IMG/VR virus record: IMGVR_UViG_3300037584_002838
Location: 1-64,000 of that record
From: a virus
Direction: 5' to 3' (one strand)
DNA: 64,000 bases
Shown: one piece after another, positions 53,539 to 59,130 of the stretch
How positions within the stretch are numbered: position 1 is the stretch's first letter
How the letters are laid out: each line of letters starts with the position of its first letter
Made by a program: the position numbers and the translations under genes
Notes under the pieces: model-generated
Databases searched by the model: none
What the model was told of the DNA's origin: nothing
The model's input: only the letters and a program-made list of their open reading frames with translations

Positions 53539-53579
53539 AAAAAAAGGAGGCAAATGGGGTTTTACCCCCATTTACCTCC
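53539..53579 (-). terminator. Terminator closing the first cassette
   Basis: Hairpin GGAGGCAAATGGGG...CCCCATTTACCTCC next to an A-tract. Confidence 0.7.
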
Positions 53580-53607
53580 GAAATACCCGTCGTATAACAT
53601 CACCTCC

Positions 53608-53787
53608 TTAGAATACTTCATATTCGTCGACTAATATCTCTCTGTATGTTTTGCTTCTTTCTTTGATTAGGTAGCACTTTTTACACCAATCCGTGTGTAC
53701 TAATGTTACTATGTTATCATATCCATCATAGAAATAAGTAATTTTAGGCGCATAACGCTTCCAATGATGTTGGCATTTTTTTGTCAT
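53608..53787 (-). CDS. Small Cys/His protein (59 aa, not in ORF track)
   Basis: Manual translation: MTKKCQHHW...WCKKC. ATGA overlap with the upstream gene. Confidence 0.5.
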   Translation of the reverse strand: MTKKCQHHWKRYAPKITYFYDGYDNIVTLVHTDWCKKCYLIKERSKTYREILVDEYEVF

Positions 53788-53970
53788 TCTTCTTCATCTC
53801 CAAATATGGCGGGTTTGACATCTGAAATTGGGTGACTCTCAATTTTGTAGCCGCCTAACACTAAATTAACCATTTGCATGTTTAGCATGAATTTCATGTC
53901 CTCTTTGTTATCAGCCCAAAAATGAGCGACCTTGCCTATTATAATAAAATCAGTTCTTCCTTTTGGCATA
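53784..53970 (-). CDS. Hypothetical protein (likely start MPKGRT; start approximate)
   Basis: GGAGG RBS before this ATG. Confidence 0.5.
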
Positions 53971-53971
53971 C

Positions 53972-54334
53972 TTATTCCTCCTTTTCTTCCTCTTCTTTGG
54001 GCCATAGTGGTTCCCCTGTAATGATGGACTTGAAATTAGGGTCGAAACCTTGACTGATGACCAATAACTGTGTTAATTTGTCATTTTCAAGCAATATCTC
54101 TTTGATGTATTCTTCTATCTCTTCAAATTGAGAAAAGTCCATCTCGTAGCCTATTCCGGTTTCGCCTATCCATTCAATATAATTGAATATATTATCAAAG
54201 TCCTCCATAGTTTTAGGAACATACTGCAATCCTCCTGAAGTTTCTCTCATATGTTCCTCATTGTCCCTACAATAGCAGTTTAGGGTTCTAGTGCATTTTG
54301 GGCATTCTGTTTTAATTCCGAAGTTAATACTCAT
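53972..54334 (-). CDS. Hypothetical Cys-containing protein (start revised to MSINFG)
   Basis: GGTGA RBS before ATG at 54334. The longer track ORF would run through a repeat site and a terminator. Confidence 0.6.
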   Translation of the reverse strand: MSINFGIKTECPKCTRTLNCYCRDNEEHMRETSGGLQYVPKTMEDFDNIFNYIEWIGETGIGYEMDFSQFEEIEEYIKEILLENDKLTQLLVISQGFDPNFKSIITGEPLWPKEEEEKEE

Positions 54335-54445
54335 TCTTTTCACCTTTTTTCTTATTAATAGTGGCCCGTTCAAATAATTCCGGTTATTTTCCGTGATTTC
54401 CCGATTATTTCCCGAACTGTTATTATCCAAAATACGGGTATATAC

Positions 54446-54490
54446 AGGGTAGTCAAAGTAACTACCATATGGTTTGGTAGTGTTCTTTGA
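54446..54490 (+). repeat. Palindromic cassette-boundary site 1
   Basis: AGGGTAG-TCAAAG-TAACTA-CCATATGG-TTTGGTAGTGTT-CTTTGA. Confidence 0.85.
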
Positions 54491-54518
54491 AGGAACGGTA
54501 CGAACCATAAAAAAATGA

Positions 54519-54559
54519 AGATTGATGGAGGGCCAATGTAAGTCACCCTCCATCAATCT
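54519..54559 (-). terminator. Hairpin terminator with conserved 13-nt loop (copy 1)
   Basis: 14-bp stem AGATTGATGGAGGG/CCCTCCATCAATCT with loop CCAATGTAAGTCA and a nearby A-tract. Confidence 0.75.
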
Positions 54560-54570
54560 CAAGCACCTAT

Positions 54571-54855
54571 TCAAACAGGTGCCTCATCCAAATATGCTCT
54601 GAGTTCTCTCAGTTGCTCATAGTGTGCATCCTTCCTGAGTATTCCTTGACATGCAAAGTACAGTAAGTGCATGTTGTTGTCTAAAGCATCTTGAAATTCT
54701 TCTTCAGTCATTTCCAACTCAATCCAATAAAACTCGTAATTTTGCATGAATGAGTTGATGATGTGCGCTCTGCGGTCTAGTTTTGCTTGGCGCATTAACT
54801 CCATAACATTCACTTCTTCTTCAGTAGGCTCAGATGGCATTTTTTTTCTGCTCAT
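54571..54855 (-). CDS. Cassette gene, hypothetical (probably leaderless)
   Basis: 94 aa. TATA (CTTATATC on the minus strand) lies about 23 nt upstream of the ATG. Confidence 0.65.
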   Translation of the reverse strand: MSRKKMPSEPTEEEVNVMELMRQAKLDRRAHIINSFMQNYEFYWIELEMTEEEFQDALDNNMHLLYFACQGILRKDAHYEQLRELRAYLDEAPV

Positions 54856-54880
54856 ACTAATATGGAATAATTCAGGATAT

Positions 54881-54943
54881 AAGGTAACATCAAAGTTAAT
54901 GTTACCATATGGTTGTAATCACTTTGAATAGCATTACAACCCT
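54881..54943 (+). repeat. Palindromic cassette-boundary site 2
   Basis: AAGGTAACA-TCAAAGT-TAATGTTA-CCATATGG-TTGTAATC-ACTTTGA...AACCCT. Confidence 0.85.
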
Positions 54944-54959
54944 CAAAAAAAATAATGAA

Positions 54960-57318: not shown

Positions 57319-57380
57319 CGCATGAGAATTAAGCAGAAGATGAAACCTCGCTTAATTCTCATGCGGTGGCCCTTTTTTTT
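57319..57380 (+). terminator. Long-stem terminator
   Basis: CGCATGAGAATTAAGC...GCTTAATTCTCATGCG followed by T8. Confidence 0.75.
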
Positions 57381-57384
57381 ATTC

Positions 57385-57455
57385 AGGGTTGTGACAAATG
57401 CTACGCATTATCCAAAGTGTGTCACAACCATATGGTTTGCTTTGCGACAAAACCC
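57385..57455 (+). repeat. Palindromic cassette-boundary site 6 (between convergent terminators)
   Basis: AGGGTT...CAAAGT-GTGTCACAA-CCATATGG-TTTG-CTTTG...AACCC. Confidence 0.8.
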
Positions 57456-57522
57456 GATAGTCATTAAAAAAAAGAAAAAGGGGGAAAACGCCATTTTTCT
57501 AGCGTTTCCCCCCGATTTCTAC

Positions 57523-58119
57523 TCATTCACGGTCAAACTCGTACATATCAGTCATTTTCCGTGGCTGGATAGGGTGAAATTCACCAATATACTTGATACC
57601 TTCACTTGTACCGTCCCAAATACCGTTCTTCAGAGAATGAACCAATTTCTTCTCTAATTTGTCACAATACCTGTTTAACCATCTATCGAACAATATCGCC
57701 TCGTCCCAATCTTGTGTATCAAAGTCGTTTATTTTTCTACGGTTTATGATAAACGGATTAAAGCCTAAACTGTGTAAATTGATATTTGCCCATGACTCCA
57801 TTGATTCTCTGAATTGATGAATCATACCATCAATAGTGGCTTTAACATCTGATGGAATAATGGTTCTTCTTCTAGTTACCAAATAATCGTATGGTGTTGC
57901 TTTCATTAGGCTTTTTAGAGCAAGCCAATTACATTGGACTTCATAATCCACTCTTCTCGGCCATTCAACCATACTATTCAATGAATGTTGAAGCATTGTC
58001 ATTAAGGTCAGAACTAATTCTACCCTCCATGCTTGTATTTCATCGAATAGTCCTGTTTTGTGAGCATGGGCTAATGCGTCTATCTTTTTCATCAGTGCTT
58101 GCGGCGTTATATTCTTCAT
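57523..58119 (-). CDS. Cassette gene, distant paralog family A-like C-terminal half
   Basis: IPSDVKATIDG and SLKNGIWDGT resemble family A motifs. Terminator hairpin at about 57480-57512. Confidence 0.65.
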   Translation of the reverse strand: MKNITPQALMKKIDALAHAHKTGLFDEIQAWRVELVLTLMTMLQHSLNSMVEWPRRVDYEVQCNWLALKSLMKATPYDYLVTRRRTIIPSDVKATIDGMIHQFRESMESWANINLHSLGFNPFIINRRKINDFDTQDWDEAILFDRWLNRYCDKLEKKLVHSLKNGIWDGTSEGIKYIGEFHPIQPRKMTDMYEFDRE

Positions 58120-58156
58120 AATACTCCCTTAGTAATATGGAAAAAATCGTCTTATT

Positions 58157-58229
58157 AGGGTAGTTCAAAGTACACTACCATATGGTAATAAAATATTTAT
58201 GAAATAAATACGCTTTGGTTTTTACTACC
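58157..58229 (+). repeat. Palindromic cassette-boundary site 7
   Basis: AGGGTAGT-TCAAAGT-ACACTA-CCATATGG-TA...CTTTG...ACTACC (longer right spacer). Confidence 0.8.
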
Positions 58230-58245
58230 ATAAAAAATAAGACTA

Positions 58246-58309
58246 CAAAGCGGCACAAACTAAAATCAGAATTGTAATTGGTATTTTTATTTTAGTTTGT
58301 ACCGCTTTG
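58246..58309 (-). terminator. Long-stem terminator
   Basis: CAAAGCGG-C-ACAAACTAAAAT...ATTTTAGTTTGT-A-CCGCTTTG hairpin near an A-tract. Confidence 0.65.
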
Positions 58310-58340
58310 GGTGAATATAAGGCTACGGGGGAAATCCGCA

Positions 58341-58859
58341 TCATTCTTCTTCTTCAGCCTCCATGCCGAAGTTTTGTGTAGTTAAACCGGTACGAGTACC
58401 GTCCCACACATTATCTTTCAAACGCCTCTTGAGCGAGTTCACAATAGTAGAAGCCATGTATGCTGAATACTCATCAGCATCACTGAATAGGCCTCCGCCG
58501 GATTTACCGTGCTTAGTTAGTAACATCGAAATGTTACCAGAAGCAAAAAAATCAGATGCGGCTTGTGAAACTTCATCTGATATTGAGTCTAGTACGGCTT
58601 GAATCTCAGGTGGAAGTTGGGAACCTCTACCTTTCTTAATTGGTGAATTAGGCAAGGTCTTACAAATAGCCCTTACTGCTTCCCAAAATCTATCTCTTTC
58701 TTCATCACTTGAAGCAACTTTACCCGCTTCAAGAGTTTGAATAATCAAGTCATTCATAGCACCTGCATCATTTTCCTTTAACCATGATTCAATCATAGTT
58801 ACCTTTTCTGTCCATTTTGTCATATCCATAGTAATCAACTCCTTTGAATAATGCTTCAT
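58341..58859 (-). CDS. Paralog family A member (likely start MDMTKW)
   Basis: Close paralog of 56688-57212 on the opposite strand. Confidence 0.8.
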   Translation of the reverse strand: MKHYSKELITMDMTKWTEKVTMIESWLKENDAGAMNDLIIQTLEAGKVASSDEERDRFWEAVRAICKTLPNSPIKKGRGSQLPPEIQAVLDSISDEVSQAASDFFASGNISMLLTKHGKSGGGLFSDADEYSAYMASTIVNSLKRRLKDNVWDGTRTGLTTQNFGMEAEEEE

Positions 58860-58916
58860 TCCCCCGAAGCACTCATATGCTCTCTGTTAGGGTATAAGGT
58901 AGGACATTTCATTCGC

Positions 58917-58940
58917 CAAAGTGCGCCTACCATATGGTTG
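58917..58940 (+). repeat. Cassette-boundary site 8 (right arm degenerate)
   Basis: CAAAGT-GCGCCTA-CCATATGG-TTG. Confidence 0.7.
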
Positions 58941-59110
58941 TGTAGTAATTCATCTATATAGATGGGCTTGTATTAAAATACGATGTAAGATTACAATATT
59001 AAAAGATAACACTTTAATTGAGTTGAAGGGATTATTTAGATGATTTTTGCTTGTGTTCGATTAAATCTATATATTCTAAATTGATTCTATATAGACCCAT
59101 ATAGTAGATT

Positions 59111-59130
59111 ATACAACCATATGGCTTTGT
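59111..59130 (-). repeat. Cassette-boundary site 9 (inverted orientation)
   Basis: Minus strand reads ACAAAG-CCATATGG-TTGTAT. Confidence 0.6.

Follow-up and report, generated by a model that had tools for sequence, protein, structure and literature searches.

An array of reshuffled transcription units with palindromic twin-hairpin joints in a group-B magrovirus genome

The accessory genes of a group-B magrovirus lie in an array of small transcription units whose order differs between relatives and whose rearrangements have their junctions at one short palindrome. We studied the array in a stretch of 64,000 nucleotides (IMG/VR record IMGVR_UViG_3300037584_002838, positions 1 to 64,000; hereafter the window), where nine copies of the palindrome CCATATGG separate the units between 53540 and 59130. 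The initial annotation, made from the letters of the window, had described the region as an integron-like cassette array that might be shuffled at these sites. With moderate confidence, we propose that the units are self-contained and are connected by a modular joint at each boundary, that a regulatory factor would read the core of the joint, and that ectopic exchange between the cores would shuffle the units.

The core CCATATGG was counted ten times in the window, whereas 0.93 copies were expected and the largest count in a shuffled sequence was 4. Nine copies lie within 54465-59124, exactly at the starts claimed for them, and each of these is the boundary between transcription units. The tenth copy, at 2283, has neither the flanking motif nor a hairpin. 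The core is a CC-ATAT-GG palindrome, usually ACCATATGGT, of which the 8 letters are their own inverted repeat. In 39 non-redundant arrays, 295 exact cores were found in 156 kb and 3 in the 645 kb outside. Variants of the core with one mismatch occurred in these arrays at the background level, and none of them had the flanking motifs. When pairs of CAAAG-N12-40-CTTTG were analysed (n=191), 177 contained the exact core and none contained a core with 1-2 mismatches. The core is all-or-none and confined to the unit boundaries of one region; it is not scattered genome-wide. In a search of the full-text literature with CCATATGG, none of the top 15 of 1,541 matches was related, most being primers and other short sequences, and the magrovirus literature searched made no mention of repeats, palindromes or promoters.

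For the comparison with relatives, 80 IMG/VR loci were retrieved that contain the helicase gene adjoining the array. Every locus with a helicase identity of at least 57% and enough flanking sequence had 4-13 cores at the same place, and about 40 related group-B magrovirus contigs carried cores at this position. In the distant group with a helicase identity of 35-39%, no cores were observed at the array position, and a single stray core was present elsewhere in two loci. By a pattern scan, at least 119 more stretches were detected in viral contigs. The core-to-core intervals (n=273) had a median length of 540 bp and belonged to 148 families. Among 44 arrays, the shared cassette families differed in order, orientation and presence. 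An identical gene order in relatives had been named at the outset as an argument against shuffling; we observed no common gene order, but inversions, losses, gains and moves with junctions at CCATATGG.

Several single events were followed to their ends. The segment of unit 5, from the core of site 5 to the core of site 6 (56585-57436), is inverted in the relatives L002, L003 and L004. The homology stops at the ATAT, and each hairpin arm travels with its unit. Another cassette was found in three states: L016 has it in direct orientation, L018 has it inverted at the same place, and in L022 it is both inverted and moved, with all junctions at cores. Core-to-core indels of 518 bp (L042 and L053) and 397 bp (L047 and L017) were also observed. 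The 198-aa gene of unit 6 is absent from all 43 relatives examined, and sites 8 and 9 of the window correspond to a single site in L002. A difference between L026 and L027 in the cassette '44' showed no clean indel at the site examined and was not counted. The ends of blastn high-scoring segment pairs (HSPs) were within 5 nt of the core centre in 10% of the cases, compared to 2% for random positions, and had peaks at +5 and -5. An ungapped junction profile gave no information, as its register was disrupted by indels in the arms, and the HSP-end statistics and the single events were used instead.

The rearrangements are not frequent. About 1-2 events were found between genomes that are 90-95% identical in their flanks, and no change of arrangement was confirmed at 98%. 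When the identity of a shared cassette was compared to that of the helicase in the same genome pair, the median difference was -3.5 points. A recent lateral exchange of cassettes was rejected, since no genome pair had a cassette that was 10 points or more above the helicase identity. Because the shared cassettes are not more alike than the backbone, no lateral traffic is visible, and the shuffling looks slow and intragenomic. A use of the motif in cellular hosts was searched for in 185,579 species genomes, which gave 85 stretches, close to a rough chance estimate of several tens. The sole array with a cellular label (L143, NZ_NZTP01000027.1, 14.7 kb, seven CCATATGG cores) comes from an Altibacter sp. 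metagenome-assembled genome and is probably a viral contig that was misbinned into this bacterial genome. Taken together, the comparison with relatives supports the idea of a shuffled cassette array.

A full site has the layout 5'-GGnnn[..TCAAAGT..]nnnCC-ATAT-GGnnn[..ACTTTGA..]nnnCC-3'. Each arm is an inverted repeat, with a stem that extends from the GG of the core to an ACC and with CTTTG(A/G) in the loop. The flanking elements GGGT, TCAAAGT, ACTTTGA and ACCC, which the initial annotation had listed, were found at sites 1-7. The last two sites are partial, as it had noted: site 8 has the left arm only and site 9 only a CTTTG that abuts the core. The inverted repeat that it had described as spanning the core is present but is better described by two adjoining hairpins than by a single long one. 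Folds as single-stranded DNA (ssDNA) gave the twin hairpin at sites 2, 4, 6 and 7 and the left arm of site 8. The compact sites 1, 3 and 5 can form a single long hairpin as well because their two loop motifs are complementary. The outer GGGT and ACCC are the far strands of the twin-hairpin stems.

A common orientation had been ascribed to eight of the nine sites. This was not borne out, since the assignment rests only on the base after GGT (TACC..GGTT in 6 of the 9 window sites), and sites 6 and 7 are symmetric in themselves. In the relatives, 283 sites yielded the same consensus ATGGTTGTACTTTG for the left and the right arm, and the base after GGT is a T in 55% of the left and 65% of the right arms. 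With one consensus shared by both arms, the site has no polarity and the co-orientation is not a real property.

The stems were scored by core-anchored searches with permutation controls, as MAFFT could not register the variable stems and loops. A covariance alignment was avoided because an alignment selected for pairing would be circular. Perfect core-anchored stems of at least 5 bp were found in 33% of the left arms and 39% of the right arms, compared to about 3% for control CCWWWWGG words. In a second control, which keeps the motif content, the proximal strand of one arm was matched with the distal region of the arm of another genome. Here, stems of at least 5 bp occurred in 36% of the 566 arms versus 9.6% in the control, and stems of at least 7 bp in 11.5% versus 1.1%. 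Terminator arms that were picked solely by the homology of the adjacent protein had stems of at least 5 bp in 58% versus 16%, and of at least 8 bp in 13% versus 0.5%. These stems co-vary. Of the 286 stemmed arms with a CTTTG, 270 have it in the loop, and its position shifts outward with the length of the stem, showing that it is placed by the hairpin and not by its distance from the core. The mismatches in the stems were G.T in 7 cases on one strand and 7 on the other, with 23 others; this lack of a G.T excess gives no support for a role as RNA or as a single strand.

Judged by the order of its elements, each arm belongs to the neighbouring unit, either as a predicted promoter arm (P) or as a predicted terminator arm (T). 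A promoter arm consists of the hairpin, ACC(C/T), a TATA-like box, about 25 nt and the ATG, whereas in a terminator arm the hairpin is followed by ACC and an A-run that is the oligo-T of the incoming gene. The oligo-T terminator of the incoming gene, with a hairpin of its own, precedes the arm and is outside the arm hairpin. The distance from CTTTG to the ATG peaks sharply at 42-43 nt (47 of 232 arms), which implies short-leader or leaderless mRNAs, and the TATA-like boxes are at a fixed distance from both. The units lie on both strands, each with a predicted TATA-like box and its own terminator, and sigma-70-like matches in the window were at the level of shuffled sequence (23 versus 25.8). 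We counted 71 distinct T|P joints, 38 P|P, 36 P|T and 21 T|T. The 21 T|T joints have the exact core, which shows that it persists also at boundaries without an adjoining promoter. In the window, sites 4 and 6 are each located between convergent oligo-T/hairpin terminators, in agreement with the earlier description.

For the regulatory part of our proposal, we assume that a sequence-specific, probably dimeric DNA-binding factor would read the core together with CTTTG and would set or insulate the expression of all array units together. One candidate would be a divergent TFB-like protein of the virus itself, which is encoded at 41528-42427 on the minus strand and has a TFIIB zinc ribbon and a weak TFIIB similarity at residues 83-259 (NCBIfam E 3.6e-7). 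Its gene was present in all five site-bearing complete genomes. Of five site-lacking relatives searched, the four that are at least 90% complete did not have it. This co-occurrence contrasts two clades only and is a lead rather than evidence.

The same observations could be explained if the sites were purely regulatory or architectural. As operators or insulators, they would then serve a single dimeric factor that turns the entire block on and off or prevents read-through from unit to unit, and the rearrangements would be incidental, with breakpoints at the sites because only intergenic ones are tolerated. The position of the sites directly upstream of TATA-like boxes, with a fixed geometry, would fit this, as would the family-wide conservation of the last site before the late gene arm and, within the limit of two clades, the distribution of the TFB-like gene. 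However, the homology ends should then be spread over spacers, promoters and terminators, whereas they peak at the edge of the core, and the arms swap their partners precisely at the ATAT. We therefore consider that a regulatory function without a role in the shuffling is quite unlikely.

Our proposal of a core that is both read and exchanged would account for the rearrangements as follows. The core is the only stretch common to all joints and is its own inverted repeat, so that ectopic exchange could reshuffle the units in either orientation. The exchange might be carried out by the general replication-recombination machinery of the virus, or it might result from breaks or template switching where hairpins are extruded. 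Several points weigh against this proposal. The 8-bp core is invariant even at the 21 T|T joints, which is stricter than usual for the sites of a regulator, and its invariance also exceeds the need of general recombination. Some inversions joined sites with no more than about 10 bp in common, a short length for homologous recombination. A purely double-stranded binding site does not explain the co-varying hairpins, and the absence of a G.T bias leaves the purpose of the hairpins unsaid. In addition, the promoter and terminator roles of the arms were read from the sequence only.

A dedicated site- or structure-specific recombination would fit the all-or-none core (177 exact, 0 with 1-2 mismatches), which is kept even at the T|T joints, and the exact core-to-core junctions with as little as 10 bp shared. 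The co-varying arms with their conserved loop motif would also resemble structured recombination sites. An unrecognised enzyme of the virus or the host would cut and rejoin within the symmetric CC-ATAT-GG of the twin-hairpin joint and thereby invert, excise and insert whole units. The symmetric centre would permit inversion as well as excision and integration, as in integrons or shufflons but with a new enzyme. This enzyme would not be of the tyrosine, serine or HUH type. In five relatives that are 99-100% complete, no match was obtained to the tyrosine recombinases (PF00589; 14 of 14 control genomes matched), the serine recombinases (PF00239) or the Y1-HUH proteins including RAYT (PF01797). 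The initial annotation had recognised no recombinase in the window, and we found none among the 40 larger or array open reading frames (ORFs) scanned with Pfam, a scan that covered about half of the 79 window ORFs of at least 70 aa. Integrases are also reported to be absent in a magrovirus paper (PMC11706807). Besides the missing enzymes, the few rearrangements per sequence divergence (about 1-2 at 90-95% flank identity) and the cassettes that are never closer than the backbone, so that active traffic is not visible, argue against such a system, and we regard it as unlikely.

If a dedicated enzyme exists, it could be a host enzyme or a member of a family of 170-174 aa that is encoded three times in the window, at 52389-52901 (-) just outside the array, 56688-57212 (+) and 58341-58859 (-). 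The family was found in 34 of 43 relatives with 1-3 copies. It is all-helical with the invariant residues D86, H112, K114, G116, G117 and W146, including an HGKxGG motif. The invariant D, H and K, the presence in most arrays and the lack of a recognisable fold would be compatible with such a role. No sequence match to Pfam, PHROG or the PDB was found for this family, and the protein atlas gave nothing. The AlphaFold model (pLDDT 78.5) had no Foldseek match with E < 0.6. VIA-align detected only generic three-helix bundles at residues 7-65 with a Z of at most 8.1. A likeness of the model to Cas1 or casposases appeared in scattered rows with TM 0.2-0.3 and was not credible.

Among the known systems, the best-fitting one is the modular shuffling by promoter-early stem-loops (PeSLs) of T4-type phages (Arbiol et al. 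2010, PMC2839356; Comeau et al. 2014, PMC4122927), and the array may be its archaeal-virus counterpart. In both cases, the small genes of a hyperplastic region, most of them ORFans, are separated by a conserved composite motif of promoter and stem-loop. Where close relatives differ by an indel or a replacement, the boundaries lie in this motif, and no dedicated recombinase is involved. For PeSLs, excised mini-circles between neighbouring motifs have been shown (PMC2839356, PMC4122927). The systems differ in that the PeSL has a sigma-70 early promoter, whereas the predicted promoters here are of the archaeal TATA type. The stem-loop of the PeSL is itself the terminator, whereas the oligo-T terminators here are outside the arm hairpins. 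Moreover, the array has a separate, invariant palindromic exchange point of 8-10 bp outside the promoter and the terminator, its joint has a two-fold symmetry and a pair of co-varying hairpins that are specific to their units, and inversions are common.

The integron likeness held in one part only. At the sites, units have been gained or lost and their order has changed, and integrons are likewise arrays of small units parted by structured, recombination-prone sites. Membership in the integrons, however, fails on the lack of an intI gene, the predicted promoters of the units and the absent polarity. The attC sites are co-oriented single imperfect hairpins with R and L boxes and extrahelical bases, whereas symmetric twin hairpins surround CCATATGG here. 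Integron cassettes are promoterless and expressed from a common Pc, whereas each unit here has a predicted TATA-like box and a terminator and can be in either orientation. Neither IntI nor another tyrosine recombinase was found, and no evidence was seen here for an exchange of cassettes between backbones.

Three other systems share single features with the array. A possible archaeal precedent is the haloarchaeal myovirus HGTV-1, for which a review (PMC3950731, citing Sencilo et al. 2013) mentions a TATA-plus-inverted-repeat motif before ORFs that its authors likened to PeSLs. Going by that description, HGTV-1 is also an archaeal tailed virus with a repeated intergenic motif of TATA-like box and inverted repeat before many small ORFs; the sentence in the review describes no invariant palindromic core or comparative evidence of shuffling. 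In shufflons and invertase systems (Rci, Hin/Gin), inversion between short repeats also generates several arrangements, but whole transcription units and not alternative gene ends are inverted here, and no tyrosine or serine recombinase was found. REP/BIME elements with RAYT are likewise short extragenic palindromic hairpins between genes, including convergent ones. Here, however, no Y1-HUH protein (RAYT) was found, and the sites lie in one 5-kb block, have an invariant core and are linked to promoters.

With these results, the idea from the PeSLs of T4-type phages, that a regulatory motif is also the point of shuffling, is extended to archaeal viruses, where the motif has a different structure. 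The results also give a first testable model for the transcription of magrovirus accessory genes, in which CTTTG is followed by a TATA-like box and, about 42 nt downstream, by the start. The architecture marks the plastic places of magrovirus genomes, and ACCATATGGT with its hairpin is a sequence handle by which accessory-gene cassettes can be found and delimited in metagenomes. The strict invariance of the core, the co-varying hairpins and the frequent inversions go beyond the PeSL model and leave room for an undescribed mechanism of recombination or DNA recognition.

Magroviruses are among the most abundant archaeal viruses of the surface ocean and infect marine group II archaea; to our knowledge, neither the viruses nor their hosts are in culture. 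The window encodes a tail tube protein, a Cpn60/TCP1 chaperonin, a ribonucleotide reductase (RNR) and a tRNA-Arg, as well as a family-B DNA polymerase split into 24690-26405 and 22814-23695 and a clamp-loader-like ATPase. This gene set matches the description of group-B magroviruses, whose hallmarks are a split DNA polymerase, RNR, tRNA-Arg and a chaperonin (Philosof et al., PMC5434244), and the window virus is a group-B magrovirus with the array as its hyperplastic accessory-gene block. The tRNA-Arg(CCT) was predicted by ARAGORN with a length of 94 nt at 6970-7063 (+), inside the mechanically listed ORF 6843-8081. Consequently, either this ORF is not a gene over its full length or the tRNA has an intron. 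For recombination and repair, the window has a Hef/XPF-type nuclease, a Cas4-like PD-(D/E)XK nuclease, a UvrD-type helicase and an ATP-dependent ligase. The Hef/XPF-type protein (19748-20497, minus strand) is a structure-specific nuclease with ERCC4 and HhH2 domains and, like the Cas4-like nuclease (21907-22827, minus strand), is encoded in the replication arm. Both nucleases are candidates for the processing of hairpins or branched DNA.

Between about 17 and 53 kb, the genes of the window point leftward, from about 59 kb onward they point rightward, and the array sits in the region of this switch. The minimum of the cumulative GC skew falls in the same region, at about 54-58 kb. The last interval of the array (58938-59116) lies between the half-sites 8 and 9 and consists of 179 bp of AT-rich non-coding DNA with CTATATA(G) repeats. 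An AT-rich last interval of 89-223 bp was present in most arrays examined, whereas L002 and L003 have a single site there. In six arrays, a mini-hairpin of 32-35 bp, GGTTGT..ACAACC, takes the place of this interval. The final array site ACAACCATATGGCTTTGT..TTTTTTATTT is kept family-wide in front of the late gene arm. The last interval with the final site may be an origin or a master control region. With the skew minimum and the AT-rich, repeat-bearing interval between the last two cores, the sites as a whole might be thought of as signals for replication, priming, packaging or DNA entry where two gene arms diverge; the initial annotation had also considered protein-binding or nicking signals for DNA entry or replication. 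However, the skew follows the gene orientation and does not by itself mark an origin. The variable number of 4-13 sites, one-to-one with the unit boundaries, would be unexpected for an origin or packaging signal, and we consider this explanation very improbable.

The individual sites vary around the common plan. Site 1 (54447-54506, core CCATATGG at 54465-54472) has a left hairpin GGTAG/CTACC with the loop TCAAAGTAA and a right arm GGTTTG..CGAACC, followed by the oligo-T terminator of the 94-aa gene. Site 2 (54883-54942, core 54905-54912) combines GGTAACA/TGTTACC with GGTTGTAAT/ATTACAACC, and its ssDNA fold had -11.7 kcal/mol with a z of -4.7. Site 3 (55425-55467, core 55443-55450) is compact, with GGTAT/ATACC and GGTT/AACC, and lies between divergent TATA-like boxes. 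Site 4 (56141-56197, core 56160-56167) has GGTAT/ATACC and GGTTTGAGA/TCTCAAACC. At site 5 (56567-56624, core 56585-56592), which is between divergent promoters, the left stem GGGCTT/AAGCCC is a compensated variant. Site 6 (57386-57455, core 57428-57435) has a 10-bp stem, GGTTGTGACA/TGTCACAACC, with a 23-nt loop containing CCAAAGT, and a compensatory change from A-T to T-A was found in the stem of the L002 orthologue. Site 7 (58158-58229, core 58178-58185) has GGTAGT/ACTACC on the left and, on the right, a long arm GGTAATAA..TTACTACC with CTTTGG in the loop. In site 8 (58890-58937, core 58930-58937), the left arm GGTAGG/CCTACC has a 22-nt loop with CCAAAGTG. Site 9 (59117-59150, plus strand) forms the end of the array with ACAACCATATGGCTTTGT..AAATTTTTATTT, before the plus-strand late gene arm.

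The seven intervals between sites 1 and 8 contain one unit each with the orientations -,-,+,-,+,-,-, as the initial annotation had given them, and interval 2 is non-coding. With the exception of the 170-174-aa family, the array ORFs are ORFans with homologues in 0-2 of the 43 relatives. Ahead of site 1, a first unit (53546-54446, minus strand) contains three small ORFs at 53608-53787, 53784-54005 and 53972-54334, for which no Pfam or PHROG family was found above the cut-off. It has a hairpin and oligo-T terminator at 53546-53579, and the left half of site 1 forms its predicted promoter arm. The region of about 500 bp between the outer gene of the 170-174-aa family and this unit (53000-53540) has no long ORF and carries direct repeats (53096-53119 and 53179-53202) and small hairpins.

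Unit 1 (54571-54855, minus strand) encodes a 94-aa ORFan without a homologue in any of the 43 relatives and has the TATA-like TTATATCC about 28 nt before the ATG, adjoining the left arm of site 2. Unit 2 (55124-55396, minus strand) has no ORF but a structured RNA that resembles the Rfam manA motif RF01745. The match covers the full model and, with 50.4 bits (E 8.4e-11), falls slightly short of the gathering score of 55.2. The manA motif is known from marine bacteria and cyanophages, and the manA-like RNA was observed here in an archaeal virus. Unit 3 (55485-56098, plus strand) contains a 161-aa ORF, which probably starts at 55497, and a 43-aa Cys-rich ORF, and is followed by a terminator at 56106-56121 with a T-run. 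Unit 4 (56262-56522, minus strand) encodes an 86-aa ORFan. Unit 5 (56585-57435, plus strand) contains the 174-aa gene of the paralog family (56688-57212) and a structured 3' region. The 198-aa ORFan of unit 6 (57523-58119, minus strand) has its terminator at 57480-57513, and the 172-aa paralog of unit 7 (58341-58859, minus strand) has a terminator hairpin at 58246-58309. Both array paralogs have complementary stretches of 25 nt in their 5' and 3' untranslated regions, at 56657-56681 and 57208-57232 for the 174-aa gene and at 58322-58346 and 58846-58870 for the 172-aa gene, which are 84% and 76% complementary, respectively. By such pairing, the paralog mRNA could be closed into a large loop.

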